Shown: positions 7,102 through 64,000, numbered from the stretch's first letter. The stretch is 64,000 nucleotides of DNA from Patescibacteria group bacterium (GCA_024654575.1 JANLHG010000014.1:24745-88744); one strand, 5' to 3'. Numbers and translations: made by a program. Notes: generated by a model not told the origin, from the letters alone.

Positions 7102-7545
7102 TTATACCTTATTTTTCTTAGACTCGTTGTACATTTCTTTTACTCCGGGTGTAGAAACTTCATTTATATCTAAACTCCACGTCAGATCTTTTAATTTGCT
7201 ATCTGAAAGTTTTGGTATGAAAACAGATGGTTGTGAGGCCTCGTCTTTTTTATGGACAATTTTTCTATCTTCCTTTTTCCATATGTATAATTTATTTCCC
7301 AGTGCATATTTTACTGCTGATTCAACAATTGAAATGAACGGTTTGCTATTTATTTTATAAAAAGCTAAGGCCAGTGAAAATCCAATCACTATCGCTATGA
7401 TAGGCAATGCAATGTAAATGTATAAAATAGCGTAAATTATATAAGATAGACCCGCTCCCCCAGCAAGATAAATGAACTGTTTTAGAGTCAATGGTCCGAA
7501 TATTTTATCTTCTATTTCTATAAATTGTGGTACTTGAAATTTCAT
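7102..7545 (-). CDS. Small two-TM membrane protein, VirB3/PrgI-like by position
   Basis: 147 aa with two adjacent TM helices (LAGGAGLSYIIYAILYIYIALPIIAIVIGFSLALAFY), located just upstream of the VirB4-like genes as VirB3-like proteins are in Gram-positive-type T4SS. Confidence 0.4.
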   Translation of the reverse strand: MKFQVPQFIEIEDKIFGPLTLKQFIYLAGGAGLSYIIYAILYIYIALPIIAIVIGFSLALAFYKINSKPFISIVESAVKYALGNKLYIWKKEDRKIVHKKDEASQPSVFIPKLSDSKLKDLTWSLDINEVSTPGVKEMYNESKKNKV

Positions 7546-7556
7546 AAATTAGATTA

Positions 7557-30437: not shown

Positions 30438-30509
30438 GCACCCATAGTGAAATGGATATCATACCGGTCTTCGGAACCGTTGTTCCAGGTTCGAATCCTG
30501 GTGGGTGCA
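30438..30509 (+). tRNA. tRNA-Arg (anticodon TCG)
   Basis: Cloverleaf folded by hand: acceptor GCACCCA/TGGGTGC, anticodon loop CTTCGGA, T-arm CCAGG-TTCGAAT-CCTGG. There is one C:U mismatch at 27:43. Confidence 0.75.
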
Positions 30510-30511
30510 CT

Positions 30512-30582
30512 GCGGGTATGGTTTAGTGGTAGAACACGTCCTTGCCAAGGATGAGACGGGAGTTCGATTCTCCCTACCCGCA
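30512..30582 (+). tRNA. tRNA-Gly (anticodon GCC)
   Basis: Acceptor GCGGGTA/TACCCGC, anticodon loop TTGCCAA, T-loop TTCGATT. Confidence 0.88.
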
Positions 30583-30680
30583 CAGACAAAAATGTCCACA
30601 AAAGTGGATAACTATGTGGACAGTGTGTATAAAGGACATAAAAATAGAGTTTTTGTCTTATAAAATGTCTTATTGATAAT

Positions 30681-31073
30681 ATGTTTCACGTGAAAAATAT
30701 AGTAGGAAAGACTGGTGAGGATATAGCTTGTACGTTTCTTATGAAACAAGGATTTAGTATAATTGAAAGAAATTACTTAAAGAAGTGGGGAGAGATTGAT
30801 ATTATTGGATTAAAAGAGGGAACACTACATTTTTTTGAAGTGAAGACAGTCTCTAGAGATTTGAATGTTACATATGAAACAAACGATTCATATAGAGCAG
30901 AGGATAATATTCATTTATGGAAAGTAAAACGATTAAAAAGGGTAATTCAAACTTATTTATCTAGTGATGGTGTTAAATATGGAGATAATTGGCAATTTAA
31001 TATTATTACAGTTTTATTGGACACAGTTCATAATCTTAATAAAGTAGATCTTTGGGAAGATGTAATTTTGTAA
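30681..31073 (+). CDS. YraN-family (UPF0102) endonuclease-like protein
   Basis: N-terminal GEDIACTFLMKQGFSIIERNY...EIDII pattern. 130 aa. Confidence 0.6.
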   Translation: MFHVKNIVGKTGEDIACTFLMKQGFSIIERNYLKKWGEIDIIGLKEGTLHFFEVKTVSRDLNVTYETNDSYRAEDNIHLWKVKRLKRVIQTYLSSDGVKYGDNWQFNIITVLLDTVHNLNKVDLWEDVIL

Positions 31074-31109
31074 AAGACATTACAGTGTGTTAATATTTGG
31101 AAGTTATAT

Positions 31110-31182
31110 CGGAGTGTGGTGTAACGGTTAACATTCCTGTTTTGGGAACAGGCGACTCAGGGTTCGAATCCCTGCACTCCGA
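31110..31182 (+). tRNA. tRNA-Pro (anticodon TGG)
   Basis: Acceptor CGGAGTG/CACTCCG, anticodon stem CCTGT/ACAGG with loop TTTGGGA, T-arm CAGGG-TTCGAAT-CCCTG. Confidence 0.88.
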
Positions 31183-31198
31183 CAGATAAAAATATCTT

Positions 31199-31501
31199 AT
31201 GGCAAAGAGTTTTATACGTACAATAGAAGATTTTACTTGTAAACATTGTAAAATAATAGTAAAAGGGGATGGGTATACGAATCATTGTCCTGATTGCCTT
31301 TGGAGTATGCATGTAGATGTAAATCCTGGAGATAGACTTCATGATTGTGGGGGATTGATGAAACCAATATTGCTAGATAAAAAGGGTGATATCTATGTTA
31401 TAAGCCACAAATGTGAGATTTGTGGTTTTATTCGAAACAACAAAATAGGGAACAATGATAATTTTGAATTGGCTATTGCAATTTCTAATGGAAGTGTATA
31501 A
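31199..31501 (+). CDS. RNHCP-domain zinc-ribbon protein
   Basis: CKHC ... TNHCPDC ... CEIC cysteine pattern. Confidence 0.6.
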   Translation: MAKSFIRTIEDFTCKHCKIIVKGDGYTNHCPDCLWSMHVDVNPGDRLHDCGGLMKPILLDKKGDIYVISHKCEICGFIRNNKIGNNDNFELAIAISNGSV

Positions 31502-31632
31502 TTATGTTGTTAGTTTTAATACCTCGGTCAATTGAAACTAGCACTTTATCATTTAATTTAAAATTGTATGGAAACATGCGAAAAATGTGGAAAGCCCGCA
31601 GATAAATGTGAGTGTGAATAGTTTCTAATAAT

Positions 31633-31664
31633 AAAACTCCCCATTGTGGGGAGTTTTATTATTT
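31633..31664 (+). terminator. Rho-independent terminator
   Basis: Perfect hairpin AAAACTCCCCA-TTG-TGGGGAGTTTT followed by ATTATTT. Confidence 0.7.
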
Positions 31665-31681
31665 GCTATAGTTTTGTTATC

Positions 31682-31752
31682 GCGGGATTAGTTTAGTGGT
31701 AAAACAACAGTTTTCCAAACTGTGGTCGGGAGTTCGATTCCCCCATCCCGCA
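31682..31752 (+). tRNA. tRNA-Gly (anticodon TCC)
   Basis: Acceptor GCGGGAT/ATCCCGC, anticodon stem ACAGT/ACTGT with loop TTTCCAA. There is one A:C mismatch in the T-stem. Confidence 0.85.
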
Positions 31753-42124: not shown

Positions 42125-42196
42125 GCTCTCATCGTTCAATGGATAGGACATAACTTTGCGGAAGTTAAAATGTAGGTTCGATTCCTACTGGGAGCA
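42125..42196 (+). tRNA. tRNA-Arg (anticodon GCG)
   Basis: Acceptor GCTCTCA/TGGGAGC, anticodon stem TAACT/AGTTA with loop TTGCGGA. D-loop and T-arm are identical to tRNA-Arg(TCT) at 46378. Confidence 0.8.
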
Positions 42197-42206
42197 CAAC
42201 TAGCGT

Positions 42207-42665
42207 TTAAAACCCTAATTTTTCCATAATCTTTTGACTTAAAGGCTCAATATGTTCTTCTTCAGAAAGATATGCAAGTAATACATCACGGACAATATCA
42301 CTATCAGTTATTTCGTCTATAGGAATTATGATAAAAGGTGCTAAAAGTTTTTTTGATTTAAAAATTATTTTGTGTTCATGTTCATCAATCCAAAATGACT
42401 CTAAAGTATTGAATGGGTAAATAAAATTATTAGCAGAAACTCCTCTATCACTTATTTCGCAGGAAAGAGTTTGGGGTTTTTTTGCTGAGACTAAACAAAG
42501 AGCAAAAGCAGAAATGACTGTAAAAATAGCAAAAAGGATATTGTTAAAAATGACAGAAGTAGTAGCAATAGAAATTGTAATAATTCCCACTGCCCAATAC
42601 CAATCAGAGTTTTTTCTAATATGTTGATGCTCAAGTACGCTCCATTCTAGTTGAGTCTGTGCCAT
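42207..42665 (-). CDS. Hypothetical two-TM membrane protein
   Basis: 152 aa with two adjacent TM helices near the N-terminus. Confidence 0.35.
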   Translation of the reverse strand: MAQTQLEWSVLEHQHIRKNSDWYWAVGIITISIATTSVIFNNILFAIFTVISAFALCLVSAKKPQTLSCEISDRGVSANNFIYPFNTLESFWIDEHEHKIIFKSKKLLAPFIIIPIDEITDSDIVRDVLLAYLSEEEHIEPLSQKIMEKLGF

Positions 42666-42753
42666 GTATATATTTTAACATATAACATTAAAAAGATACT
42701 ATATTAAATAAGTTGAAATATATTTAAAAATATGACATTATTTCAAAGTATAG

Positions 42754-42840
42754 GGATGGGTGCCAGAGTGGTCTAATGGAACAGTCTTGAAAACTGTCGC
42801 CTTCGCAAGGGGGCCGTGAGTTCGAATCTCACCCCATCCG
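42754..42840 (+). tRNA. tRNA-Ser (anticodon TGA), long variable arm
   Basis: Acceptor GGATGGG/CCCATCC with discriminator G, anticodon stem ACAGT/ACTGT with loop CTTGAAA, 87 nt. Confidence 0.8.
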
Positions 42841-46377: not shown

Positions 46378-46449
46378 GCTCCCGTAGTTCAATGGATAGA
46401 ACAGAGCTCTTCTAAGGCTTTGATGTAGGTTCGATTCCTACCGGGAGCA
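46378..46449 (+). tRNA. tRNA-Arg (anticodon TCT)
   Basis: Acceptor GCTCCCG/CGGGAGC, anticodon loop CTTCTAA, T-arm GTAGG-TTCGATT-CCTAC. Confidence 0.82.
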
Positions 46450-46542
46450 CCGAAATAGATATCCACCTTTACTTGTTTTTTGTTATGATATAATAAAACG
46501 AAGGTTAAGATAAGTTAATTATTAGAATTAATAAATATTAAT

Positions 46543-46761
46543 ATGAAAATGCATGCAATTACATTCATACTGCTTATAATCGGTGGTTTGAATTGGTTAT
46601 TAGTAGGACTTTTTAAATGGGATATTGGGGTTTGGTTCGGTGGACAAGATAATGGAATTTCAAGATTGATTTACATACTTGTCGGTCTTTCAGCTCTTTA
46701 TGAGCTTTTCACTCACAAGAGATGTTGCAAAAACTGCAATTCTGCTCCGCAAACAATGTAA
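46543..46761 (+). CDS. DUF378-family small membrane protein
   Basis: GGLNWLLVGLF...LIYILVGLSALYEL signature. Confidence 0.55.
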   Translation: MKMHAITFILLIIGGLNWLLVGLFKWDIGVWFGGQDNGISRLIYILVGLSALYELFTHKRCCKNCNSAPQTM

Positions 46762-46777
46762 TTTAAAACTTTAGAGA

Positions 46778-46816
46778 AAAAACACCTTTCACAAATTTGT
46801 GAAAGGTGTTTTTTTG
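46778..46816 (+). terminator. Rho-independent terminator
   Basis: Palindrome CACCTTTCACAAA/TTTGTGAAAGGTG followed by TTTTTTT. Confidence 0.7.
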
Positions 46817-46925
46817 TTGGTGCCTCTATTGTACCAAGTTAGAACCTATTTTCAAAATCGGTTCCGCGCGGGCTTCTGGATTTTGTTTTTGGCGAGGCGG
46901 GCTATAATTTAAACAGTTAAAACTA

Positions 46926-47669
46926 CTATTTGAATTTAAAGGTTGAAAGAATTTTACTGTAAAATTCTATGTCAGATGTTGTTAGTGTTGGAGCTTGAAA
47001 TATTTCTGGGTCCGAATTGATATCAATTTTGCTTTTTATTGTTAAGGCCACTAGATGACGGTTAACCAAGAGATAGGTTGTAACCGTCTGAGCGCTAGAC
47101 TCCGGATTATATATTACATTTTGCTTCCGCTGAATCGCCGGTAGACCATCAACTATAATATTCTGTTTTGATAAAACCCTTGGACCTCCTTCACCGACTG
47201 TATTACCTACAGCGTCCATGTCAGCAAGAGTTTTTTCTAAAGAAAATTCTGATCTTTCTGGATGAATGAATATTTCGAATTGATATTTATTATTTGAAAA
47301 AAATCTCCAAATTTCAGGGTTAGCACTTCGAGGCTCGAAATCTGAAAGCAGCTTAAATTCATACGTCACTTCATTGAATGAATCTTTAATCGTTTTCCAA
47401 TTTGCGGTTTCACTTTTTGGTGCAGCAACTTGCGGTGTTTGAGTATTTATCTGTTGTTGAACTTGATTTGCTTGTGGTTGATAATTATTTTCTTCTGTAT
47501 TTGAAGAAGGAGCTGGTGTTTTTGTTGCGTAGTAGACAACACCGCCGCCGACAGCCAAAGCGGCAATTATCGCTACTATTACACCTATCCCTATAAAACC
47601 TTTATTATATTTCATAAAATTAGTAATGACTAAGTTAGAATGACCTTTAATAATAAAATTCAATATCAC
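46926..47669 (-). CDS. Hypothetical membrane-anchored protein with a Gln-rich linker
   Basis: TM helix GFIGIGVIVAIIAALAVGGGVVYYA followed by a Q/N-rich low-complexity region. Confidence 0.35.
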   Translation of the reverse strand: MILNFIIKGHSNLVITNFMKYNKGFIGIGVIVAIIAALAVGGGVVYYATKTPAPSSNTEENNYQPQANQVQQQINTQTPQVAAPKSETANWKTIKDSFNEVTYEFKLLSDFEPRSANPEIWRFFSNNKYQFEIFIHPERSEFSLEKTLADMDAVGNTVGEGGPRVLSKQNIIVDGLPAIQRKQNVIYNPESSAQTVTTYLLVNRHLVALTIKSKIDINSDPEIFQAPTLTTSDIEFYSKILSTFKFK

Positions 47670-47780
47670 TGGTTACTATATCACAATTTACCTTAAAAAC
47701 GAACAGCCAAGCCATTTCTGGCAGAAAGGGCATTTTTCCTTGACTTCTTTTGTTGTTCATATATACTTACAGAGTCCTTA

Positions 47781-47810
47781 GAAAACGCCGGCCTGTACGG
47801 CGTTTTCCTT
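47781..47810. terminator. Rho-independent terminator hairpin
   Basis: GAAAACGCCG-GCCTGTA-CGGCGTTTTC. Confidence 0.65.
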
Positions 47811-47821
47811 TGCCTAAATAG

Positions 47822-48268
47822 CTACTTATTGTCTAGTTTAATTCGCTTTTTCCAATCATCAAGTTCAAGATATAAAACTTTTCCTGGATACTTTGCTAGT
47901 AAATTTCTGAGTTTTGTGGAAAATCGTGACGTTGCATATCGTGGACCAACTTTGTTTTTCTTCGCGCTTGATACAAGATATACCTTTGTCCCGTTTTGCA
48001 CCACTCGTTCAATAAGTAATTCAAAATCTCCTTCGCAATTACACTTCCAAGAATTTCCCATATTTACTTTTGGGTAATTTCCGTGTTGCATTTTGGACAA
48101 TTGGTGCTTAAAATCCTGTCTTCGTTTTTGTATGTGAAAAATTATTTTATCATTTTTGATCTTTTTAATCCATCTGCCCGCCTCCACTAAAACAGAAATC
48201 CAAAAGTCCGCGCGGATTCCTCCCCAGACCCCTGCCTCCGCAACGCCCACTCCTTGGTTGGTTCTCAA
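47822..48268 (-). CDS. Hypothetical protein (GC-rich 5' portion; true start uncertain)
   Basis: 148-aa ORF. The N-terminal 35 codons lie in a locally GC-rich stretch (48160..48268) beside tRNA-Val, and the C-terminal two thirds are AT-rich and lysine-rich. Confidence 0.3.
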   Translation of the reverse strand: MRTNQGVGVAEAGVWGGIRADFWISVLVEAGRWIKKIKNDKIIFHIQKRRQDFKHQLSKMQHGNYPKVNMGNSWKCNCEGDFELLIERVVQNGTKVYLVSSAKKNKVGPRYATSRFSTKLRNLLAKYPGKVLYLELDDWKKRIKLDNK

Positions 48269-48284
48269 CCGCTAAGTTCCATTT

Positions 48285-48360
48285 TGGTGCGGGATGCAGG
48301 ACTCGAACCTGCGACCTTCTCAGTGTAAATGAGTTGCTCTACCAACTGAGCTAATCCCGC
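48285..48360 (-). tRNA. tRNA-Val (anticodon TAC), CCA encoded
   Basis: The reverse complement gives GCGGGAT...anticodon loop TTTACAC...T-arm GCAGG-TTCGAGT-CCTGC...ATCCCGC-A-CCA. Confidence 0.85.
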
Positions 48361-51110: not shown

Positions 51111-51186
51111 TCGTGAAAATGATGTTTTTTAAGTAGTTTTTCACGATTATGTTGACAAAATCGTGAAAATAACTATACTTACTTAT
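51111..51186 (+). promoter_or_regulatory. Fic promoter with operator-like TCGTGAAAA repeats
   Basis: A 9-bp inverted repeat TCGTGAAAA (51111-51119) / TTTTCACGA (51138-51146) plus a third direct copy at 51161-51169. That copy lies between the TTGACA -35 (51152-51157) and the TATACT -10 (51174-51179). The -10 ends 7 nt before the ATG at 51187. Confidence 0.5.
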
Positions 51187-52071
51187 ATGGCAAAGATATC
51201 AGCGGTATTTAATAAAATAAGTTTACTTAGGGAAAGATATTATAAAGCATTAATAGGAAAAGATGCACTTATTAAACTTATCTCCGAAACCGAAGCCGTT
51301 GATCAAGTATATAACTCAAATGCTATAGAAAACAGTACACTTACTCTCGAGGAGACAGAAAAAATACTTCTTCAGATTGATTTGGATAGATTTATCACTG
51401 AGCGAGAAATTTTTGAAGCAAAAAATCTTGCACGAGTAGTATCGTATATAGATAAAAGAGCTAAAGAACAAGAATTAACTCTTGATGTAATTTTGTCACT
51501 TCATAAAATGTTGATTTCAAACATTCGAGATGATGTTGCTGGAAGATTTAGAAAAGATAACGAATATGTTCGTGTTGGAAATCATATTGCTTCTAATCCG
51601 AAGGAGATAATAAGTCGTCTCGAAAAAATGTTGACGGAATACAATTTTACAATTAATGAAAATATCATCAAGCGTATATCAAAATTACATCTTGTTTTTG
51701 AGTATATCCACCCGTTTATTGATGGAAATGGTCGAATTGGGCGAGTCATTAACAATTATTTATTGATACGAGAAGGGTTCGTTCCAATAAATATAAAATT
51801 TATTGATAGAAAAATGTATTACGAAGCTTTTAAAGAGTTTGATGAAAAAGATAGCACTACTATTATGGAAGGAATCGTTGGGAAAGCACTTACGAATAGT
51901 TATCATAAGAGATTGGCGTATTTAGAAGATAAAACAATAATTACACTAATTGATTATGCAAAGAATAATAATTTTTCTCATTCTAACCTTATCAATAAAG
52001 CTAATAGACAAACCATAGAAGCCTTTTTAGAGAAAGGTGTTTGGAAAATAGGTGTTATGGATAAAAAATAA
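51187..52071 (+). CDS. Fic-family protein (AMPylase-type; class-II-like inhibitory motif present)
   Basis: Canonical HPFIDGNGRIGR Fic motif and an upstream SNAIEN ((S/T)xxxE(G/N)) motif. Start moved from the GTG at 51163 to the ATG at 51187, because the predicted -10 sits inside the GTG-extended ORF. Confidence 0.75.
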   Translation: MAKISAVFNKISLLRERYYKALIGKDALIKLISETEAVDQVYNSNAIENSTLTLEETEKILLQIDLDRFITEREIFEAKNLARVVSYIDKRAKEQELTLDVILSLHKMLISNIRDDVAGRFRKDNEYVRVGNHIASNPKEIISRLEKMLTEYNFTINENIIKRISKLHLVFEYIHPFIDGNGRIGRVINNYLLIREGFVPINIKFIDRKMYYEAFKEFDEKDSTTIMEGIVGKALTNSYHKRLAYLEDKTIITLIDYAKNNNFSHSNLINKANRQTIEAFLEKGVWKIGVMDKK

Positions 52072-52599: not shown

Positions 52600-52675
52600 G
52601 GTGGCTATAGTGTAATGGTTAGCACTAGAGTTTGTGGAACTCTCAGTTCGGGTTCAAATCCCGATAGTCACCCCA
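52600..52675 (+). tRNA. tRNA-His (anticodon GTG) with encoded G-1 and CCA
   Basis: Extra 5' G pairing with discriminator C, anticodon stem AGAGT/ACTCT with loop TTGTGGA, T-arm TCGGG-TTCAAAT-CCCGA, 3' CCA in the genome. Confidence 0.85.
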
Positions 52676-54262
52676 TTCAAGAATAAGTTGAGCGAAAGCC
52701 ATATTTCGTGCCTCAACAGTAAGGTTTTTGTCCAGTTCCAGCCGTTTATACTTTTTTTCTAACTCAGGATACGCTTTTTCTATTGGAACAAACCATTCGT
52801 TTGGTGTTATATGGATTTTTTTGTCTTTCACTAAAAAGTTCTGACCAAGTGCTGAAAATATTTCTCTTTTTTTATTAAGATCTCCAAGAAGAAACTCTTT
52901 GCGTGCATAACAAGAGAAATTAAATGTTTTTTCAGTAAGTTCCAGCCATTTTTCTGCCCTACTCTCTGTTTCTCTTAAGTTTGTTTTGAGTTTCACTATT
53001 TTTGTTGTGAGCTCATCTCTCTCTTTTATGAATGTTTCATCATCAATAAGTTCTCGATATCTCATTTTGGTGAGTGTATCTAGCTCTTTTTGAGTATTTA
53101 CAAGTGTTCTATGTTGGTTTTCATATATCTTAGTCCGTTCCTCAATTTCTTTATCGTTGTTTCGGTTGAGTATTTCAAGAGCCCACTCTTGAAACTTTGG
53201 CATGATAGTATATCGTTCAAGTTCAATATCAATCTGATCTTCAAGTTCTTTTAGTGTCATTGGATTTTTCTGATCGCATTTCACCTCTTTTTTCTTTCTG
53301 GTGCAGTTGTAATATACATAAGTTTTTAGTTTTCCAGTACTTTTTATTATTTTTGTTTTTTCGCTCGCTGTATACATTGAATTACATATTTTGCATCGCA
53401 TAAGTCCTGTATAAGCAAAATTATGTGTCTGTGCTCGTGGTTTACCGTTTCTACCGAGAATGATTTGCACTCGATCATATTCTTCAAGAGTGATCATTGA
53501 TTTATGGTTGCCTTTATAAACTCTTCCAGCCCACATAAACATTCCTGTATAGAAGATATTAGTGAATAATTTATAAATAACACTACTTGCAATTTCAACA
53601 CCTCCATCTCGTTTTGTTTTTGGTGTGCGAAAGCCCCACTCTTTATTTGCGATTTCTCGTATTTGTGGAGGTGTGTAATTTCCAGTAAGCATTATGTTCC
53701 ACATTTTTCGGACCAGATGAAATCGTTCTTTGTCTTCAATGATTGTATGTTCGAGTTTATCATTCAAATATCCTAAAGGAGCACGAGAGGGAAGCCATCC
53801 TCGATCTGCTTTTCCTTCCATACCTCGTTTACTGTTTTTTCGTAGGTCTATAATGAACTGATTTGCCATTCCGCTTTCGACATTAAATAAAAGAACATTG
53901 TCATCAGGTAGATACTGACGATCTATGCTTTGTATACATTTCAAAGCACCCTGTTGAAGCATCCAGCTTAATGTTCCACTATCAATAGGGTTTCGTGATA
54001 GACGATTGATTTGCCAGCATAGAATACCTTGAGCCTCTCCTTTTTCAATTCGTTCAAGCATATTGGTGAAGACGGGGCGACAATATGGTTTCTTTGCAGT
54101 TTTTGCTTCAGTAAGTATTTCTTTAATTGAAATGTTTAGATTGTTTGCTAGATCTTTGAGGCGACTTATTTGGTCCTCAATTGATTGGACCTGTCTATCC
54201 TCACTCTCTGATGATTTGCGAGCGTAGAGAAAATATGTAATTTTGTTAGTTTCGTTTTTCAT
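52643..54262 (-). CDS. Large serine recombinase (integrase)
   Basis: N-terminal resolvase catalytic domain (YARKSSESEDRQVQSIEDQ with the Ser nucleophile, and RLSR), a recombinase domain, and a Cys-rich zinc ribbon (CKICNS...CTRKKK..C). Start set to the ATG at 54262. Its last 11 codons overlap the 3' half of tRNA-His. Confidence 0.8.
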   Translation of the reverse strand: MKNETNKITYFLYARKSSESEDRQVQSIEDQISRLKDLANNLNISIKEILTEAKTAKKPYCRPVFTNMLERIEKGEAQGILCWQINRLSRNPIDSGTLSWMLQQGALKCIQSIDRQYLPDDNVLLFNVESGMANQFIIDLRKNSKRGMEGKADRGWLPSRAPLGYLNDKLEHTIIEDKERFHLVRKMWNIMLTGNYTPPQIREIANKEWGFRTPKTKRDGGVEIASSVIYKLFTNIFYTGMFMWAGRVYKGNHKSMITLEEYDRVQIILGRNGKPRAQTHNFAYTGLMRCKICNSMYTASEKTKIIKSTGKLKTYVYYNCTRKKKEVKCDQKNPMTLKELEDQIDIELERYTIMPKFQEWALEILNRNNDKEIEERTKIYENQHRTLVNTQKELDTLTKMRYRELIDDETFIKERDELTTKIVKLKTNLRETESRAEKWLELTEKTFNFSCYARKEFLLGDLNKKREIFSALGQNFLVKDKKIHITPNEWFVPIEKAYPELEKKYKRLELDKNLTVEARNMAFAQLILEWGDYRDLNPN

Positions 54263-54406
54263 ATAAAAACCCCAAAGGGACGGTCTGGTACCCCAACTCA
54301 CTTGCTCCGAAGAGTAGCCTCATTGGCAAACCGCCCCTTTAGGGCAACGAGGCAATAAAAAGCTCCTCGGATTAATGCTGTGAAATTAGGGTACTTATAT
54401 ATCATA

Positions 54407-55318: not shown

Positions 55319-57502
55319 TTAAAAATCTATTTCCTCCATAGTAATTTCATTGCTTTCTTGATCAGTGTTTTTTACCTCACCCTCTATTTCACTATTCTTT
55401 GCTTCACCAGAAAGTTGATACAGGGAGGAGGGGAAAATCATCATCTTGCGTTTATCGTTCGGGTCTTGTTCCTGTACGATAAGCCCAGCCGTTTCAAGCA
55501 TCGGGAGTATCTGCTGGCGAAGTTGATGACCATCCAACATCCTTCCATAAACTGCAAAGTGTTTTTCAAGAACCTCTTGGCGTGAAAGACCGAGCTTGCC
55601 TGTAAGTTCTTCAAATGTTTCATTTCTGCTGTTATTTTTTGCTTCCCACGCTGGCAAAATAACTTCTTTGTAGAGATTATAGATGTAGGGTGGTAGGTTT
55701 AATTCTTGGCTCACAGATATTTTATCCCAGAGCTTGAAGGCATCGTTTACATCATTTTTGTTCGCCGTAATCGTGGATCCGTCTCGTTCACGCCACCAGA
55801 CATTGAGCATAGCGAACGACTTGATAAGTGATAACAAGCGTTTGATATCTCGCTGATGTCGTGGTTTGAGTGTTTTATTTTTGTTTAAAAACCTCTCGCT
55901 AATTTTTTCTGGCGATACGATGTTTATTTCCTTAATGTTCTCTAGTTTGATAGCACGAATACGCTCTTTGAGTAATGCTCGGTCTGGGTTTTCTTCAAGC
56001 CAACTTACAAAACTCTCGCTGTCCGCCTCTTTGCGTATTATTGCACTAATACCTTGTTGTATTTTATCTTGACTAACCTCTGGAGAAAGAAGCAGAAATC
56101 TTGTTGCTTCCTGTTCATCTATACGAAGCCCAGCTGTGCAGAAAATAACTGACGGATATCCACGCAGAAGAATGTTTTTTGTTTTAGTTCCATTTTTCTG
56201 TGTTTTGTCTGTAATTTTAATTGCAATCTCTTTTTTGTCGTGAGAGAGAAGGGGTCGTAGTCGTGCCAGAAGTTCATTATGTGGCTGGTCCAGAAAAATA
56301 AGTATCTTGTGTGAAAGGTCAACTAAGTAGCTGTTTTTATCTTTGTCATATTGTCCAACATCGTGGAAGAACGCCGTAGGGGAGCAGTAAGCAATCTCCA
56401 TCACATCGTCTTGTGGAAACAAGCGTGCAATTTCTGTGGGGATATAACTTTTACCAGTAGATGATGGTGCATTGTAGCTGATATTGAATTGTGAGCTTTC
56501 GGTATAGGCAGAAAGCTCGCACAGGAATGTCGCCAGCTTATTCTCGGCATCGTATTTGATGGTAAGTCCGAGCGTATCAAGGAGCTGTGTTGAACTCATG
56601 GGAGCGAATTGTGTGATATCAATTTTCTCTGGATACGGCTTTGCGTATTTGCCGAACAAATCGTCTACAGATCCGTTGAGTTTTATAAAATAATCCGTGA
56701 TGTCTCCAGCTTCACCAACCTCTTCTGGCAGAGTAATGATGTGTATCTCACACCCAATACTTTCCAATATTTTTGCTACTCGTTCAGACCCTTTTCTTCC
56801 AGCATCATCTTTATCAAAACAGATATATATTTTATTATCTTTTCTTATCTTTTCTACCCACTCGTCTTTGAATGTCATAGCTCCGTGAGTAGAGGTTATT
56901 GTAGGTACATTTTTGGAAAGAAGAAGTAATCTGTCTAGTTCACCTTCGCAGATTACAAGTGAAATGCTAGGTTTTGTTAGGTTATCCCAGTCATAGAGCT
57001 GTGCCTCGGCTCCTTTAGGATATGTTATTTTATCGTTACCAAAAACAGGATCCATTCTTAATTTGAAAAACGAATAATTGCCGTATATATCCTTGATTGG
57101 GATAGTAATCCACGACTTGCGATAAAATTGTCCATAGCCAAGCTTATAGGCGTCTATGACGGCATCAGTGAGCCCTCGCTTGCGTAGATACTCTCGTATA
57201 TGTGGTGGTAATTCTTGATGACATTTTTCCACTAATTCTGTATTAAAAGTGTTTATCTTGCGTGATTTTGGTTCTGTATCGCCGAAGTATTTTGCTAATG
57301 TGATGAGATTACCTTTTTCACCACATTTTTTACAATCATATTGTCCCGTATCGATACTAAAATATAAATGTGCTTCGTTGCCTTTGCTGTCCCTATCGCA
57401 ATCATTGAAAAAGCATTTGACGATAAGTTCTTTGCCACTCTCACGAAAGGGGATACCTTTCCCGATTAGATATTCTTTAATTGTAATATTTGTTAGGTTC
57501 AT
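55319..57502 (-). CDS. Phage/plasmid P4-like primase-helicase (CHC2 zinc-binding + TOPRIM primase + P-loop NTPase)
   Basis: CHC2-like CFFNDCDRDSKGNEAHLYFSIDTGQYDCKKCGE, TOPRIM (LVICEGELD ... DKDDAGRKG), and Walker A APSSTGKS in the C-terminal half. Confidence 0.65.
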   Translation of the reverse strand: MNLTNITIKEYLIGKGIPFRESGKELIVKCFFNDCDRDSKGNEAHLYFSIDTGQYDCKKCGEKGNLITLAKYFGDTEPKSRKINTFNTELVEKCHQELPPHIREYLRKRGLTDAVIDAYKLGYGQFYRKSWITIPIKDIYGNYSFFKLRMDPVFGNDKITYPKGAEAQLYDWDNLTKPSISLVICEGELDRLLLLSKNVPTITSTHGAMTFKDEWVEKIRKDNKIYICFDKDDAGRKGSERVAKILESIGCEIHIITLPEEVGEAGDITDYFIKLNGSVDDLFGKYAKPYPEKIDITQFAPMSSTQLLDTLGLTIKYDAENKLATFLCELSAYTESSQFNISYNAPSSTGKSYIPTEIARLFPQDDVMEIAYCSPTAFFHDVGQYDKDKNSYLVDLSHKILIFLDQPHNELLARLRPLLSHDKKEIAIKITDKTQKNGTKTKNILLRGYPSVIFCTAGLRIDEQEATRFLLLSPEVSQDKIQQGISAIIRKEADSESFVSWLEENPDRALLKERIRAIKLENIKEINIVSPEKISERFLNKNKTLKPRHQRDIKRLLSLIKSFAMLNVWWRERDGSTITANKNDVNDAFKLWDKISVSQELNLPPYIYNLYKEVILPAWEAKNNSRNETFEELTGKLGLSRQEVLEKHFAVYGRMLDGHQLRQQILPMLETAGLIVQEQDPNDKRKMMIFPSSLYQLSGEAKNSEIEGEVKNTDQESNEITMEEIDF

Positions 57503-57729
57503 ATATTTGTAATTCTTTTTTGTAATAATGATAATGTTTCTTGTCTATGTTTTTGAATTAACTCATACTCTTTCTCAGTCATGGGCTTATAGACGACAGA
57601 CATCAACTGCAAGAGTTTAACGCCTTTCTCATAGGCATCCTCTCGGCTGATTTTCATTCCGAACTCGCTTTTATAGAGAGCTTGAAACTTCAAAATGTCT
57701 TCGTCTAAAATGATCATGGCTATTTTCAA
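57499..57729 (-). CDS. Hypothetical small protein
   Basis: 76-aa helical protein whose start overlaps the primase stop by 4 nt. Confidence 0.3.
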   Translation of the reverse strand: MKIAMIILDEDILKFQALYKSEFGMKISREDAYEKGVKLLQLMSVVYKPMTEKEYELIQKHRQETLSLLQKRITNI

Positions 57730-58022
57730 GAGCTGAAAATTTGATTTTTCAGTCGCTTAATCTGGTTGAAGTAAGTTTGGGCATCAACCGATGTTTTAAA
57801 ATCCCAAAAGTCTTTTATGGTTTCATCTATCCCACTACTCTTTTTTACAATGAATAAAACTTTGTTTCTTACTGCTTTATCTAAACCTGACAATTCAAAA
57901 TTTTGACAAAGCAAAAATGCCACGAGCGAAATATCGTAGCTATAAAAATAGTTTGTTGTGTCGTCGAAAGGCAGATAAGTATATTCCTCTGGGTGAACAC
58001 TTTTTTGTGTTTTTTTAGTCAT
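57726..58022 (-). CDS. Hypothetical small protein (DUF5659-like pattern)
   Basis: A YDISLVAFLLCQNFEL central segment resembles phage-associated DUF5659. Weak. Confidence 0.3.
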   Translation of the reverse strand: MTKKTQKSVHPEEYTYLPFDDTTNYFYSYDISLVAFLLCQNFELSGLDKAVRNKVLFIVKKSSGIDETIKDFWDFKTSVDAQTYFNQIKRLKNQIFSS

Positions 58023-58142: not shown

Positions 58143-58715
58143 CTACTCTGGACTATTTTTTGTATGAGCTAATTCTAATTCCTTAAAAAATAAAAGAATT
58201 TTTACACCAGCTTTTTCTAAATCATTTTTAATGATCTCGTCTCCTCTATAAATTAAAGTATCCTTACCTCTTTTGTAGAAAAATGCTTTGAGGATTTCTC
58301 CCTTAAAACCAAGTCCATTCAAAATTTTAATAAAACTTTTATTTTTAACCCGATTTTGAGTAGATAAATTACCAAACTTTGATGGTAATTCATTTCTATT
58401 TATTTTTGTGTGTGGAGCTTGAGAACAAACATACTCAAAAAATTCGAGATTACTTCCAACGGCATGTGGTTTTCCTATAAGATATTCATTAACCCATATC
58501 TCTCGGTCTTTTATTAAAAGTTTAAACTTATTTGTAATTGAATTTACTGTTGGTTTTTTATTAATTAATTCTCTAAAACTTGCCTCATGTTCTTTACTCG
58601 TTGATAGGTCCAAAACTCTTGCCCTGTACGCTAGATATTTTGTCTCAAAATCGTCTGGTAATTCTATATATAAATCAGTAGCCATAAAATTACATATAAT
58701 CTGGAAGAAAATCAA
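58143..58715 (-). CDS. Hypothetical protein
   Basis: 190 aa with no motif. Overlaps the upstream gene by 26 nt. Confidence 0.3.
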   Translation of the reverse strand: MIFFQIICNFMATDLYIELPDDFETKYLAYRARVLDLSTSKEHEASFRELINKKPTVNSITNKFKLLIKDREIWVNEYLIGKPHAVGSNLEFFEYVCSQAPHTKINRNELPSKFGNLSTQNRVKNKSFIKILNGLGFKGEILKAFFYKRGKDTLIYRGDEIIKNDLEKAGVKILLFFKELELAHTKNSPE

Positions 58716-59217
58716 ATCTATCTATCAAACCTTCTTTTTTAAGACTAAGGAGAAAATTTTCAAATTGAGGAAAGTCATCAATACCAAATTCTCTTATCCA
58801 GCTCCAATATTTTGATTGAGAAATTGTATACCTGTTTTTATTAGGATATATATCCCATTCATCTTTTAATTTTTTAAGAATGTAGAGTTTTTTTGAGTCA
58901 ACCTTACTTAGTCCTTCTAATCTATTTTCAAATTCAGTTATTTCATTTATTTGTTTTTGTCTTTGTTTGTGGGCTTTTATATCCGAATTTTTTACCTTTT
59001 CTTCTTCTGTTATTCTTATAGTCAACGGTGTTTCGTCAAATTTAGCGAAACATATAGGTCTTCCTGTTCGTTTTTCTGCTTCTTGAATTTGTTCATCTAT
59101 CTCTTTCAGTTCTTTTGGGTAGGGAGATCCAATACCCATTTGAAATCTACGAGTGGCTACACTTTCAATTTCTTTTTTTTGTTCGATTAAATTTAATAAG
59201 ATTTCTTCTGGGGTCAT
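58690..59217 (-). CDS. Hypothetical protein
   Basis: 175-aa charged, helical protein with no motif. Confidence 0.3.
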   Translation of the reverse strand: MTPEEILLNLIEQKKEIESVATRRFQMGIGSPYPKELKEIDEQIQEAEKRTGRPICFAKFDETPLTIRITEEEKVKNSDIKAHKQRQKQINEITEFENRLEGLSKVDSKKLYILKKLKDEWDIYPNKNRYTISQSKYWSWIREFGIDDFPQFENFLLSLKKEGLIDRFDFLPDYM

Positions 59218-59311: not shown

Positions 59312-59533
59312 CTAGAAATTAAACAATTCGTTTAATTCAACACCGAGAGCTTTTGCAAGTTTCTCTATATTTTCAAGAGAGACATTTCTCTCTCCACGCT
59401 CTACGCCACCTATGTAACTTCGGTCCAAACCAGTCTTGAAAGATAGACTCATCTGGGAAGTTATACCTTTCTCAAGACGGAGATTTCTAATTCTATTACC
59501 AAACCTTTTGAGTATGTTACTTCCTTTAGTCAT
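59312..59533 (-). CDS. XRE-family helix-turn-helix transcriptional regulator
   Basis: IRNLRLEKGITSQMSLSFKTGLDRSYIGGVERGERNVSLENIEKLAKALGVELNELF. Confidence 0.7.
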   Translation of the reverse strand: MTKGSNILKRFGNRIRNLRLEKGITSQMSLSFKTGLDRSYIGGVERGERNVSLENIEKLAKALGVELNELFNF

Positions 59534-59641
59534 TTATAAAGCATAGTGCTGATGAGGACTATAATGCGACGGACTATGAGTACCACTGTTTTTGTGGTAG
59601 ATTATTGCTTATAGGTACTTATAGTCATCATTGTTCTGTTT

Positions 59642-61441
59642 ATGTCTCAAAAATTACAATTACAATCAAAACAATTTCAAAAAGTTGAGCAAGCGAAAGG
59701 TCGCCCACTTCTACAGTGGGTAGGCAAGAAGCCACTTGAAAGTGTGCAATTTTATCCTGCACAGGAGACCGAGGTGTACGGCGACAAAGGTACAAAGGAT
59801 TTCAATAAGATGTTTTGGGGTGATAACTTGCAGGTTCTCTCGCACCTCTTGAAAGAGTATCGTGGCAAGATTGATTTGATATACATTGACCCTCCGTTTG
59901 ATAGTAAGGCGGACTATGTTCGCAAAGTAAAAATACGAGGTGAAAAAATTGAAGGAACTGGACAGGGGATATTTGAAGAAAAGCAATACACTGACATCTG
60001 GGAGAGAGATGAGTTTTTGCAATTTATATACGAAAGATTGCTTTTAATGAAAGAGTTACTTTCTGATAAGGGAGTTATCTATCTTCATTGTGATTGGCAC
60101 AAAAGTGGCTATTTGAGATTGATTATGGATGAAGTATTCGGTGAAGATAATTTTAGAAATGAAATAATTTGGCACTACTTCGTATCGGGTAAGTATCCAA
60201 GTGAGTTTGCAAAAGACCACGACAATATATATGTATACTCAAAAAATAAAGATGTAACATTTAATTACGAAAAACAAGTAGATAAATCTTTGTATTATGA
60301 AAAGTATTTCAATAAGCAAATTGTTACAGGAAAAGACGGCAAAGAGTATTATGAATATAACGGAGAATTAAGAACATTTGAAAAACAAGTTTCTGAAACT
60401 TGGAATATGAATAAGATTAAAAGAGATGGTAAAGAGATAGTTGGTTATCCAACGCAGAAACCAGAGGAACTGTTAGAGAGAATAATAAGGACATCTTCAA
60501 ATGAAGGTGATGTAATAGCAGATTTCTTTATGGGCTCGGGGACTACCCAAGTGGTAGCACAGAAGCTCGGGCGTAGATGGATAGGGTGCGACATCAATCT
60601 CGGAGCTGTTCAGACAGCCACCAAGCGTCTCAATCAAATCATCATTGACCAGCAAGAAGAAAAGGCGAAAGGCTTCAATGGCTCACTCGGCTTCAAGGTG
60701 CTCAATGTGAATGACTACGATGTATTCAAAAATGAGCTTGAGGCGAAAGAAATCGTTATGGAGATGTATGGGGTTGAGCCAGTTAAGCGTATCTATTTTG
60801 ATGGTGTTATGGATAAGAACTTCGTGAAGGTTATGCCACTCAATCGTGTTCTCAACAAGATGGACATCCGCACCATGCTCAAGAGCGTTGGCGATAAACT
60901 AGATAGCTTCACAGTGAAAGCCAAGTCAAAGGCAGGAGAGGCGGTCTATGAAGAAGGTGTGCTGGTCATCTGCTCGGGCATGGAGCTAGATGTGGTGGAC
61001 TTCATCAAGAAAGAGAATAAGACGGGTGTGAAAATAGAGGTCCGAGACATTCTGACTGACAAGAAAAATCTTATCTTCAAGAAAAAACCAGAGGCAAAGA
61101 TTATCGTGAAAGCAGAAGACAAAAAACTCACTGTTGAGCTCAAGGATTTCTATTCGCCGATACTGATGCGAAAGTTGGAGATTGAGAATGAAAAAGTGCT
61201 CAAGAAAGAGAACAAGGCGAAGGTGGGCGACTTCAAGCAAATCATTGATAGTGTAGCGATAGATGTGGACTATAACGGCAAGCTGTTCAATGCCGAAGTG
61301 ATGGACCTGCCAGATAAGAAAGAGGTCATCAAAGCCAAGTATTCGTGGGAGTATCCGAAGAAAGGCAAGAATACTGTGGCAATAAAGATAGTGGATGTGC
61401 TCGGCGAAGAATACTTTGAAACCTTTGAAGTAAACGCATAA
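59642..61441 (+). CDS. mod: Type III restriction-modification system methyltransferase (Mod), beta-class N6-adenine/N4-cytosine MTase
   Basis: Motif IV DLIYIDPPFDS precedes motif I IADFFMGSGTT (the beta-class order), and a target-recognition region lies between them. A Res-like helicase-nuclease gene follows 5 nt downstream. Confidence 0.72.
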   Translation: MSQKLQLQSKQFQKVEQAKGRPLLQWVGKKPLESVQFYPAQETEVYGDKGTKDFNKMFWGDNLQVLSHLLKEYRGKIDLIYIDPPFDSKADYVRKVKIRGEKIEGTGQGIFEEKQYTDIWERDEFLQFIYERLLLMKELLSDKGVIYLHCDWHKSGYLRLIMDEVFGEDNFRNEIIWHYFVSGKYPSEFAKDHDNIYVYSKNKDVTFNYEKQVDKSLYYEKYFNKQIVTGKDGKEYYEYNGELRTFEKQVSETWNMNKIKRDGKEIVGYPTQKPEELLERIIRTSSNEGDVIADFFMGSGTTQVVAQKLGRRWIGCDINLGAVQTATKRLNQIIIDQQEEKAKGFNGSLGFKVLNVNDYDVFKNELEAKEIVMEMYGVEPVKRIYFDGVMDKNFVKVMPLNRVLNKMDIRTMLKSVGDKLDSFTVKAKSKAGEAVYEEGVLVICSGMELDVVDFIKKENKTGVKIEVRDILTDKKNLIFKKKPEAKIIVKAEDKKLTVELKDFYSPILMRKLEIENEKVLKKENKAKVGDFKQIIDSVAIDVDYNGKLFNAEVMDLPDKKEVIKAKYSWEYPKKGKNTVAIKIVDVLGEEYFETFEVNA

Positions 61442-61446
61442 TGCTA

Positions 61447-64000
61447 TGGATACTCTATTTCTACAAAACATCCAGAAGCAGGTTGAAAAGTGGCGTGCTG
61501 ATGGCTATAAGGGCGTGCATAAAGAGACCGAGAACATACTGTCGCATATAAGGCGTGTAGCTTTCCTACATGAGCCACAAGTAGAAGCACTGGAGACCTA
61601 TATCTATCTCAAGGAAGTAGTGGGTAATAAGCCATCCGTGGAGCTATTCCGACAAGCATTTGAAAGCGAGCTTGAGCTTATTCGTGCCCTCGGTATCTCT
61701 GAAAAGGAGGCGACTGAACTCGCCTATGACAAAAAGAAAAAAGAAAAGATACAAGCAATCCTTGATGAGAAGTTCGGGACCTCGGACTATGTAAATCAAG
61801 TCTATGCTCTCACTATGGGCTCGGGCAAGACCATCTTGATGGCAGTGATGATGCTCTACGACTTCGTGCTTTCGTTCTATCACAAAGATGATGGACGCTT
61901 CGCAAAGAACGCTCTAGTCTTCGCTCCCGACACCACAATTATTGAGAGCTTGAAAGAAATCAAGACCTTTGACTACTCACGAGTACTCCCGAAAGAATAC
62001 GAGAATATCATCTTGAACATCAAATATCACTACCTTGAAAGCACTGACACCTCCCTTGCTCCGAACGGGAACTACAATGTCATCGTCTCTAATTCACAGA
62101 AGATAATCTTGAAGACGAGGAATGAAAGTGGCGATGCTACCAAGCGTTTGTTTGGCGATAAGAATGAGCTCGGCAGACGAGAGGTTGAAAACATGCGATT
62201 GCAAGCAATACGACAGCTCGGCTCACTCCAGATTTTCGTGGATGAAGCCCATCACTCATACGGCAAGACGCTTGAAGGCACCTTGAAGAAAACACGCCAG
62301 ACGATTGATTATTTGCACAAGCATACTCCGCTTATTTCTGTGGTAAACCTCACGGGAACTCCGTATGTGAACAACAATATGATTTCCGATGTTGTGTATC
62401 ACTTCGGTCTCAAGCAGGGCATAGAGAAAGGTATTTTGAAGCAGGTCCGCATACTGGATTACGGCGTGGTTCGGTCCCAGAAGTTTCTTGAGGAAGTGAT
62501 TGATACTTTCGTTTCTGAATACGGCACGAAGCGACTGGAAGGGCGATTGCCGAAGATAGCTTTTTACGCATCAAACATTGATGATTTGCGAAACGACTTG
62601 AAGCCAAAGCTGGAGCGTGTGCTCATTGAGCGTAATATACTGCCGAGCACCATTCTTGAATACCATACACGGGCGGAAGAAAATGCCGATGACTTCAAAC
62701 AGCTTGATACCGCAGAAAGCAAAAAGCAGTTCGTGTTGCTCGTGGGTAAGGGCACCGAAGGGTGGAATTGCCGTTCACTTGTCTCTGTAGCTTTATATAG
62801 GAAGCCAAAGAGCACTATCCTCGTGCTTCAATCAACGACACGATGTCTCCGAGCCATTGGCGACAATTCTACTCGTGCACATATATTCCTTTCAAAAGAG
62901 AACTACAAGATACTTGATAAAGAGCTCAAGAATAACTTTGCTTCAAGCATCAGTGAGTTGAATGCACAGGACCAAAAAATGGTGGAGCATACGCTAGAGG
63001 TGCAGAAACGGAAAACCATCAAGGTTAAAAAGGTGCTCAAAGAGATTTTGTCGGTGCAGGAGGCGAACGCCGATAGCATCAAGATTGATTTCAAGGAGTT
63101 CAGTCCAGAGAAGTATCAGTCATTCGTGAGCGAGGGAGGCATCTTTCTTGGAGACGAAGGCACGGCTGGATATAGTGAAGCTCGGGCGGTCCGAAAGATA
63201 GAAGACAAGAACACTTTTACTTTCTACGAGATAGCGGAGGTCATCAATCGCTATACGCATTTGCCATGTGTTGTCATTGATAGCATCATTTCTGGCAGTG
63301 GTAAGAAGCGTGATGAGTTCGTAAAGATGGCAAACGATAATATCGCACTCGTGCCGTTCGTGGTGCAAGAAATCCTCAAGAGTGCCTATAAGTATGAAGA
63401 AAAGACCGAGACAGTTGAAGAAGAACTTGAGCTCACAAAACTCTTTCCGTTCAAAATCTCTGTCCAGCAAAGCAGAGATACTCTTGTAGTGTATAAGGAT
63501 ATAGAGGAGAGTATGAGTGGTAAAAGTCGTATTGGCTTCAATATAAATCCCTATGCTTTTGACAGTAGCGATGAAAAAGACCTTTTCAGATATTTGCGAG
63601 GCGTGCTTGATAAGGAGGAGACTATAAAGGATGTTTACTTCACAGGTGCTCGTGTTTGTGCTGACCCGAACAGAAATGATTTTTATTTTGAATATAGGGA
63701 CCCACAGAACGAACATAAAACAGCTCGTTATTTTCCAGATTTTCTTATTGAGACTTCAAATGAACGTTTTTTTGTTATTGAGACGAAAGGTGGGGAAGAA
63801 GAAGCCAACTACGAAGCAAATAAGAAATCCTACAATGGCAAGTTGGAAAACCTCACAAACGATATACTCGCAAAAGAAATCGGTTTCAATGATTTTCAGA
63901 GCATAAACAAGAACTTTGAATATCGCATCATTTTTAATGCCTCGCTCCAACGTGAACGGGTGCGATTGTTTGAGAAGTTAAAAGATATTAAGAGTAAGGG
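61447..64000 (+). CDS. res: Type III restriction enzyme Res subunit (SF2 DEAH helicase + PD-(D/E)xK nuclease), 3'-partial
   Basis: Not in the ORF track. ATG at 61447, and the frame stays open to the window end (more than 851 codons). Walker A LTMGSGKTIL, DEAH box IFVDEAHHSYGKT, and a C-terminal PD...ExK (YFPDFLIETSNERFFVIETKG). The many short minus-strand ORFs listed for 61644..63950 are its shadows. Confidence 0.72.

Follow-up and report, generated by a model that had tools for sequence, protein, structure and literature searches.

A predicted type III-like restriction–modification operon with a divergent controller gene on a mobile element of Patescibacteria

Introduction

The type III restriction–modification (R-M) systems EcoP1I (phage P1) and EcoP15I (plasmid p15B), together with the controller (C) proteins of the PvuII class, are the described systems closest to the locus analysed here, which comprises a methyltransferase gene (mod), a helicase–nuclease gene (res) and a divergent XRE-family gene at the right end of a 64,000-nucleotide (nt) stretch of a Patescibacteria group bacterium (GCA_024654575.1, JANLHG010000014.1:24745-88744). 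This whole stretch is referred to as the window. C.PvuII-class proteins fall into subgroups according to their recognition helix, DR(T/S)Y or HRTY, and the published consensus of their operators, the C-boxes, is GACT-N3-AGTC-N4-GACT-N3-AGTC with a conserved central GT (PMC2175313). According to a 2025 review, C proteins occur widely among type II systems and in a single type I system; for type III systems it names translational or antisense control (PMC12707154).

The window pair is a real and fairly ordinary defence module. From its gene sequences and from its relatives, we consider it probable that the pair constitutes an active, horizontally mobile, two-subunit type III-like R-M system with a dedicated C protein. 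CRISPR is largely absent from Patescibacteria, also termed the candidate phyla radiation (CPR), which are thought to depend on R-M.

Results

The mod–res operon

The mod gene occupies 59642..61441 on the plus strand and encodes a predicted 599-amino-acid (aa) beta-class N6-adenine methyltransferase, with Pfam, PADLOC and PDB matches at the level of both sequence and fold. Its catalytic motifs for N6-methyladenine (m6A) are intact: DPPF (aa 83-86, 59888-59899) lies ahead of FMGSGT (aa 296-301, 60527-60544), which places motif IV before motif I as in the beta class, and DPPF presumably specifies m6A rather than N4-methylcytosine. Mod matches Pfam N6_N4_Mtase at 5e-50, while its top PADLOC model is the type III methyltransferase MTase_III (PDLC03633, 2e-69), aligned over residues 53-589 of 599. 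The closest PDB sequence is EcoP15I Mod (4zcf_A, 1e-23); next come M.MboIIA and the type III Mods Mbo45V and 6k0w. An AlphaFold2 (AF2) model of Mod, with a predicted local distance difference test (pLDDT) score of 72, likewise finds 4zcf_A as its top Foldseek match (E 7e-19); in this predicted-fold comparison 4zcf_A/B and 6k0w (all at E ~1e-18) outrank the type II beta-class enzymes, and EcoP15I Mod is followed by the type III Mods of H. pylori and Mbo45V. An exact-sequence look-up of the window Mod in sequence records returned no identical entry.

Mod ends at 61441 and the Res ATG begins at 61446, which leaves a gap of 4 nt (TGCT). This linkage is conserved: 33 of the 36 related loci have mod and res side by side, mostly 2-7 nt apart and usually with the same 4-nt spacing. 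The two genes form a translationally close operon that is conserved as a pair. The original prediction of a 599-aa beta-class methyltransferase with DPPF in front of res is correct as to gene, class and mod-then-res order, but its gap of 5 nt is one too many. It had also named, as an outcome that would speak against a type III system, a Mod resembling type II or orphan methyltransferases and lacking a Res partner; the opposite is found, with type III Mods closest in sequence and fold and Res adjacent in nearly all loci.

Within Mod, aa 181-260 are hypervariable (~60182-60421). Across 34 orthologues from the related loci this segment shows 22-36% identity to the window protein, compared with 60-88% elsewhere. 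It spans ~80 aa between motifs VIII and X, the position of the target recognition domain (TRD) in beta-class enzymes, and looks like a classic swappable specificity cassette. The GC content of mod, 39.7% overall, dips sharply at exactly this place: it is 37.5% in the N-terminal part, 27.1% in the TRD and 43.8% in the C-terminal part. The low GC of the TRD between its richer flanks suggests that specificity was altered by recombination of the TRD cassette. Mod is a compositional mosaic, which fits a recent exchange of this kind. Downstream of the catalytic region follows a conserved C-terminal domain (~60659-61438).

Mod and res are adjacent and co-oriented; Mod is of the beta class with a central TRD, and Res combines superfamily 2 (SF2) helicase motifs with a C-terminal PD-(D/E)xK signature. 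This is the layout of a type III system, and the original reading of the pair as type III is supported at the level of sequence. As applied to the window pair, "type III" is an architectural assignment and not proven homology. Because Res lacks demonstrable homology to the canonical subunit, we call the system type III-like on the basis of architecture and Mod, and do not count it as a member of the EcoP15I Res family.

The Res subunit

The res gene runs on the plus strand from 61446 to the window edge at 64000 and encodes at least 851 aa of a predicted SF2 ATPase with a C-terminal PD-ExK nuclease, its stop codon lying just past the edge. From the ATG at 61446-61448 the frame is free of stops up to 63998, which amounts to 851 codons; the chance of such an open stretch, (61/64)^851, is ~2e-18, and the frame is thus not random. 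An uninterrupted Res frame had been claimed from an ATG at 61447. The frame exists, but it starts at 61446, and the frame at 61447 is full of stops. That the supplied track of open reading frames (ORFs) shows only short antisense ORFs over res was noted correctly; the lister omits ORFs that run off the source.

A homologue search over 5.8 billion proteins gave thousands of matches. The best 120, which we examined, are 65-98% identical to Res and nearly all 843-848 aa long. They terminate in "...LFEELKKR*", aligned ~3 residues short of the window edge, so that the description of Res as "more than 851 codons" is correct to the letter yet gives a wrong impression. The DNA of locus L046, whose Res is 98% identical, aligns to the window until 63983, and divergence starts where the L046 stop codon lies. 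By these alignments the window Res is essentially complete and its nuclease domain fully present; what lies outside is the stop codon and possibly a few residues more. The last 5-6 codons of the window Res (63983-64000, compared with L046:3595-3604) differ from this otherwise 98%-identical relative. Since similarity to L046 ends at the 3' end of res, a boundary of the element or of recombination may lie at this very position. Identity to L046 is 91% in DNA and 98% in protein, and all family-invariant residues are kept; res is thus under purifying selection, as mod is too, and is no pseudogene.

All motifs that had been predicted for Res (GSGKT, DEAH and the C-terminal YFPDF...VIETKG) are located in its translation. 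The full SF2 set consists of a Q-like PQxEALE, GSGKT (aa 125-129), DEAH (aa 266-269), TGTP, GKGTEGWN and QSTTRCLR; in the DNA, motif I lies at 61818-61832, DEAH at 62241-62252, TGTP at 62352-62363, motif V at 62745-62768 and motif VI at 62829-62852. In the nuclease region, YFPDF (aa 762-766, 63729-63743) contains the PD at 63735-63740, and VIETKG (aa 777-782, 63774-63791) contains the ETK at 63780-63788. Across 46 close homologues these SF2 motifs do not vary, and relatives at 45-47% and at 33-35% identity keep them too; the triad D765...E779-x-K781 is equally invariant in both sets.

Res scores 36 bits (8e-9) against Pfam ResIII and passes the gathering score of 22.5. Its best NCBIfam match is NF046055 BPTD_3080 (1.6e-24); this match is partial, confined to the first RecA-like half (aa 96-336), and reaches 86 bits against a cutoff of 800, so Res is not a member. 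In a Vibrio relative, the region matching the Res nuclease hits Tn7_TnsA-like_N and DUF1064, both PD-(D/E)xK folds. An AF2 model of Res has a pLDDT of 65 overall, with moderate confidence in the nuclease region. Res belongs to an uncharacterised family.

The controller gene and its operators

Upstream of mod, the minus strand encodes a 73-aa XRE helix-turn-helix (HTH) protein (59312..59533) with a DRSY helix. It matches PADLOC Control_protein over its full length (3e-25) and Pfam HTH_3 (1e-13), and its helix GLDRSYIGG fits the DR(T/S)Y recognition-helix subgroup (PMC2175313). A candidate C-box pair, TACTCATAGTCCGTCGCATTATAGTC, is located on the minus strand at 59557..59582, 23 nt upstream of the C-gene ATG, and reads TACT-CAT-AGTC-CGTC-GCAT-TAT-AGTC in the orientation of the C gene. 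Over its 26 nt, with the layout 4-3-4-4-4-3-4, it matches the consensus at 13 of 16 half-box positions and at the central GT. The pattern is unique in the 64-kb window, with 0 expected from 100 shuffles. A single C-box, TACTTATAGTC (TACT-TAT-AGTC, 59616..59626, unstranded), sits 15 nt upstream of the Mod ATG and is a candidate operator of mod-res; together with the proximal box at 59572-59584 it forms an inverted repeat.

A C orthologue in the same position is found only in the related loci L003 and L036, where it lies 100-113 nt from mod. There, with C proteins at only 62% identity and drift elsewhere in the spacer, the C-box pair has hardly changed, and the single box is invariant in all three XRE-bearing loci. 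Unlike these conserved operators, what follows C on the same strand differs from locus to locus: p175/p190, c8 and c15 are unrelated genes, which indicates that C travels with the Mod side. The C gene lies neither ahead of the endonuclease gene nor in one transcript with it, since it is on the opposite strand and divergent from mod-res; consequently, any control would act on both subunits together.

By its family match and its boxes the XRE protein is of the C.PvuII controller class, and from the behaviour of described C proteins we infer that it regulates itself through the double box and modulates mod-res through the single box. The original suggestion that this divergent gene could act as a controller is therefore in line with both the C-protein match and the canonical C-boxes. 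Two further ideas about the C gene were discarded. An intrinsic terminator behind XRE, which would make the gene monocistronic, is not called by the scan, and the hairpin at this site is weak (-7.9 kcal/mol, z = -0.9). The neighbouring p175/p190 as a type II endonuclease co-transcribed with C find no family matches and are not retained with C in L003 or L036.

The mobile element

A ~12-kb serine-recombinase/primase element is inserted at tRNA-His and carries Mod-Res as its terminal cargo. The left junction is formed by the tRNA-His (GTG) gene on the plus strand (52601..52675; Rfam tRNA 61 bits, ARAGORN), next to a gene for a 552-aa large serine recombinase, the predicted integrase, on the minus strand (52643..54301; Pfam Resolvase 1e-16, Recombinase and Zn_ribbon_recom; PHROG 95 integrase 8e-56). 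The 3' part of the tRNA-His gene overlaps the 3' end of the recombinase ORF by ~30 nt. Given this overlap, the 3' end of the tRNA is probably provided or restored by the element. Further along the minus strand lie the replication module with a 727-aa Toprim/DnaG-like primase (55319..57502; Pfam Toprim_2 1e-11, PHROG DNA primase), the core element genes p76 (57499-57729) and a DUF5659 protein (57726-58022; Pfam DUF5659 3e-9), and a variable module of p190 and p175 (58143..59217), which has neither Pfam nor PHROG matches.

The same arrangement recurs in 36 loci. On the minus strand it comprises serine recombinase, small ORFs, Toprim primase (or an alternative 400-aa protein), p76, DUF5659 and the variable module, and on the plus strand a regulatory module, Mod and Res, with unrelated host genes after Res. 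Recombinases homologous to that of the window (cluster c3) are found at the same end in related loci. The primase is 60-87% identical and syntenic in at least 16 of these loci, p76 is conserved in 16 and the DUF5659 protein in 26; p190/p175 are not kept and are replaced by c14+c8, c13 or c15. The window thus presents an integrative element with a serine recombinase at one end, a tRNA gene beside it, conserved synteny and unrelated flanks, the right end lying beyond the window. Phage structural genes, sought with PHROG, are absent. A circular plasmid had been considered, as homologue contigs cluster at 12-14 kb, and was rejected, since the contigs examined carry host flanks.

The close homologues all come from metagenome-assembled genomes of Patescibacteria/CPR, among them Nomurabacteria, Saccharibacteria-labelled bins, Parcubacteria, Gracilibacteria and Uhrbacteria. 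The contig of P0121, the closest relative of the window Mod at 96% identity, has the same insertion site and carries an HTH_17 gene where the window has XRE. With respect to composition, res has a GC content of 43.6%, 11 points above that of the host (32.6% over 52 kb). In 24 other loci, Res GC tracks the GC of the flanks (r = 0.82). The excess in the window, set against this tracking elsewhere, indicates that this copy, or at least the 3' part of mod together with res, arrived recently. The original prediction had inferred acquisition from a GC content of about 45-47%. Foreign composition and an integrative element are borne out, but res and mod as whole genes lie below this range, which is reached only in some 300-nt windows.

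To the left of the element lie the host genes cobalamin adenosyltransferase and Fic. The Fic/DOC-family gene near the insertion site (51163-52071) and the tRNA clusters at 30438-31752, 42125-42840 and 46378-48360 are ordinary context of a small-genome host with 32% GC.

Upstream modules and junction inserts

The region upstream of mod takes three forms: the C protein (window, L003 and L036), an HTH_17 gene, or the LOOT RNA, often together with HTH_17. The HTH_17/MerR-like (excisionase-like) gene encodes 64-73 aa, is co-oriented with mod and precedes it in 13 loci at the place of the C protein (L007, L009 at 5947-6147, L011, L014, L019, L021, L026, L027, L029, L031, L034, L040 and the P0121 contig). 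Its product could act as a recombination directionality factor or regulate R-M in place of the C protein.

LOOT is an orphan RNA of Rfam (RF03000) that scores 71-87 bits upstream of mod in 7 of 7 tested loci, and a model built here places it in 13 (L008, L010, L014 at 5952-6067 with the Mod ATG at 6134, L015, L017, L021, L022, L029, L030, L031, L033, L037 and L040). Its orientation is always that of mod, and its end lies 49-71 nt upstream of the start codon; the window has no LOOT. In all 13 of these loci, the 5' strand of an internal LOOT helix recurs, letter for letter, in a stretch of 9-17 nt that ends 1-7 nt before the end of the Mod ATG. The resulting three-way relation is kept by at least 7 covarying sequence variants. 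Such three-way covariation at the ribosome-binding site and start of mod suggests a cis-acting translational switch, in which alternative pairings would hide or expose the start. A weak LOOT-like match (38 bits) at L002:11431-11550 lies downstream of res, ahead of a 328-aa ORF, and is the sole match of this kind that is not upstream of mod.

The junction between mod and res, which holds only the 4-nt gap in the window, is an insertion hotspot in relatives. AIG2/GGACT-like, T5orf172 and unassigned ORFs are found there (L005:7598-7999, L013:7375-7998, L017:7555-8001, L036:7699-7998 and L046:687-1055), those of L036 and L046 belonging to one family.

Relatives on plasmids

A tblastn search against plasmids recovers Res relatives that are 33-35% identical over 87% of the length and share all motifs. 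The Prokaryotic Genome Annotation Pipeline (PGAP) names them "DEAD/DEAH box helicase" or "TnsA endonuclease N-terminal domain-containing protein". Such a Res is preceded by a Mod that aligns end to end with the window Mod, C-terminal domain included, at 39% identity. In the three plasmids examined, a gene for a 956-965-aa UvrD-helicase/PDDEXK_1 protein lies upstream of the Mod-Res pair and forms one overlapping operon with it (Vibrio pVAS19, L042:110-7544; Enterococcus pEC369, L043:223-7466; a Nitrosomonas plasmid, L044:69-7529). This three-gene operon is neither annotated as R-M by PGAP nor recognised by PADLOC and may be an undescribed defence system. The helicase-methylase-ATPase system Hma of PADLOC was considered as its identity and dismissed, there being no Hma models among the matches.

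On the Bacillus badius plasmid pPM400 (L047), a gene for a co-oriented 75-aa HTH regulator (182-409) stands directly upstream of a mod that PGAP annotates as canonical type III. This regulator is unrelated to the window C protein. Type III operons may have small regulators beside them more often than the literature would lead one to expect.

Discussion

Proposed mechanism

By analogy with EcoP1I and EcoP15I, a Mod dimer would recognise a short asymmetric site via aa 181-260 and place m6A on one strand. Res would dock on Mod, possibly through the 260-aa C-terminal domain of the latter. On unmethylated foreign DNA, ATP hydrolysis by Res would license long-range communication between sites, followed by cleavage through PD-ExK. 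The type of site, hemimethylation, the requirement for two sites and the subunit stoichiometry are modelled in this scheme on EcoP15I, and the regulatory logic on PvuII/Esp1396I: the C protein would regulate its own gene through the double C-box and, via the single box, would tune or delay mod-res transcription upon entry of the element into a new cell.

On the same analogy Res would be harmless alone, because it has no DNA-recognition module. In locus L001, Mod is broken into five short ORFs (6179-7996) next to an intact Res of 848 aa. A cell could tolerate a decayed Mod beside an intact Res only where Res needs Mod in order to act, as type III Res does, and the locus fits a Res that is harmless without its partner.

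Competing explanations

Several observations weigh against the reading of this locus as a type III-like system with its own controller. Res matches no PADLOC model, REase_III included, even at E<=10; searches of PDB sequences, by phmmer with the single sequence and then by a family profile, return nothing relevant; and Foldseek, run with the pLDDT 65 model, finds generic SF2 helicases only and not the Res of 4zcf. With hhalign, the Res profile aligns to EcoP1I Res of phage P1 in the motif V-VI block only (E 0.06) and to a five-member canonical Res profile over 50 columns of motifs V-VI (E 0.003, probability 9.6%). Homology across both helicase and endonuclease domains, by which the canonical EcoP1I/EcoP15I Res family is defined, is thus not found, and the Res stop codon falls outside the window. 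In Mod, the catalytic halves lie ~57 aa apart, compared with ~165 aa in a canonical Bacillus Mod, and the conserved C-terminal domain (aa 340-599) has no counterpart in canonical Mods. The profile results and the Mod C-terminal domain also speak against the notion that both subunits descend from the canonical EcoP1I/EcoP15I family and have merely diverged, as do the PGAP names of the plasmid relatives, which are not those of a type III endonuclease, and the TnsA-like nuclease of relatives, whereas the type III-like BPTD_3080 carries RE_endonuc. This notion draws its strength from the sequence and fold matches of Mod to EcoP15I and other solved type III Mods, from a Res that passes the ResIII threshold and aligns its motif V-VI block with EcoP1I Res, and from JGI/NCBI auto-annotations of homologues as "type III restriction enzyme" or "restriction endonuclease subunit R"; on balance we find it somewhat unlikely. 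The plasmid relatives raise a different objection. As the nearest Mod and Res outside CPR are linked to a UvrD-helicase/PD-(D/E)xK gene at the start of an overlapping-gene operon, the ancestral mechanism may not be classical type III. The window pair might accordingly be a reduced derivative of a three-component helicase-nuclease/methyltransferase/helicase-nuclease system, which would not work by type III sliding and collision and whose third partner was lost or outsourced in CPR; Res might, for example, mark or nick DNA that a UvrD-PD-(D/E)xK partner degrades. However, a UvrD-like gene is absent next to Mod-Res in all 36 CPR loci, and the three-gene system is itself uncharacterised. With the invariant nuclease triad of Res, the two-gene system is self-sufficient in principle, and because Res keeps this nuclease of its own we rate such a derivation as improbable.

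The controller is open to a further objection, since the C gene is present in only 3 of ~35 related loci, the window, L003 and L036. The XRE protein could instead be a lysogeny-type or replication-module repressor of the element, acting on the leftward p175-p190-DUF5659-p76-primase operon. Its gene comes first on the leftward strand, where two divergent modules meet; most related elements lack it and have HTH_17 and/or LOOT; and the weak hairpin after its stop makes read-through into p175 possible. Yet Control_protein is by far the best PADLOC match of XRE, the DRSY helix and the canonical 26-nt C-box are those of a C protein, and the own-strand downstream genes differ across the three loci, while the C-boxes, the single box and Mod are retained. 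A repressor of the element is therefore, in our judgement, rather unlikely, and a C.PvuII-class controller remains the preferred reading of XRE. Finally, res might be a pseudogene or truncated, and mod an orphan or phase-variable epigenetic methyltransferase. The window contains no Res stop codon, and the last codons diverge from the 98%-identical relative. Against this stand 851 uninterrupted codons that cover the full length of the 843-848-aa family with all invariant residues, synonymous differences to L046 that far exceed the non-synonymous ones, and translations of Mod and Res that, read by eye, have no tandem repeat tract. Decay or truncation is thus largely refuted and barely credible.

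Significance

Beyond routine R-M, the locus brings together a divergent Res family missed by defence-finder models, a mod-res operon with C-boxes, a CPR-wide mobile element and a lead on LOOT. A compact serine-recombinase/primase element spreads one type III-like system among many lineages of CPR, with exchange of the TRD cassette. As the PADLOC models of type III endonucleases miss Res, such systems would be scored as orphan methyltransferases, and the R-M content of CPR genomes would be underestimated. A C.PvuII-type controller ahead of a mod-res operon would extend regulation by C proteins past type II and type I, and poses the question of how establishment is timed with both subunits in one operon. 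Through the relatives, the orphan LOOT RNA gains a first genomic context, and the compact, divergent Mod/Res pair should be useful for mechanistic comparison with EcoP15I.

A wider proposal can be advanced tentatively, with the odds somewhat against it: the pair may represent an unrecognised and widespread type III-like lineage, in which a Res unrelated in sequence to the EcoP15I type carries a TnsA-like nuclease, and Mod has a short swappable TRD and a novel 260-aa C-terminal domain. This lineage would be the signature cargo of a Patescibacteria-wide ~12-kb element, with three interchangeable 5' modules, the C protein with its C-boxes (the first for a type III-like system), HTH_17, and LOOT as a cis translational switch.

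Comparison with known systems

Among the systems compared, the three-gene plasmid operons share with the window the order of Mod and then Res and have overlapping genes, and differ by the additional UvrD-type gene, a longer TRD and the absence of a C protein. BPTD_3080 (NF046055) is likewise an SF2 and nuclease protein linked to a methyltransferase; it is larger (~970-1033 aa), contains an RE_endonuc domain and is encoded in the order res, small ORF, methyltransferase.

With EcoP1I and EcoP15I (4ZCF), the window system shares a tightly coupled mod followed by res, a beta-class DPPY/F m6A Mod with a variable central TRD, and a Res composed of an N-terminal SF2 ATPase (GxGKT, DEAH, TGTP and motif VI Q..R..R) and a C-terminal PD-(D/E)xK. 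In contrast to these enzymes, the window Res carries an insertion of ~80 aa between the Q-like PQxEALE and Walker A, and the nuclease is TnsA-like in its relatives. Moreover, a translational delay of Res has been described for EcoP15I (PMC12707154), whereas the window system has a predicted C protein. This protein resembles the PvuII/C.PvuII class in being a 73-aa XRE protein with a DRSY helix and a 26-nt operator directly upstream of its gene. The single box at the methyltransferase start recalls the O_M operator of Esp1396I (PMC3488213), in which C regulates M as well. Unlike in C.PvuII-class systems, the window C gene is divergent from mod-res, and the system with which it is associated is type III-like.

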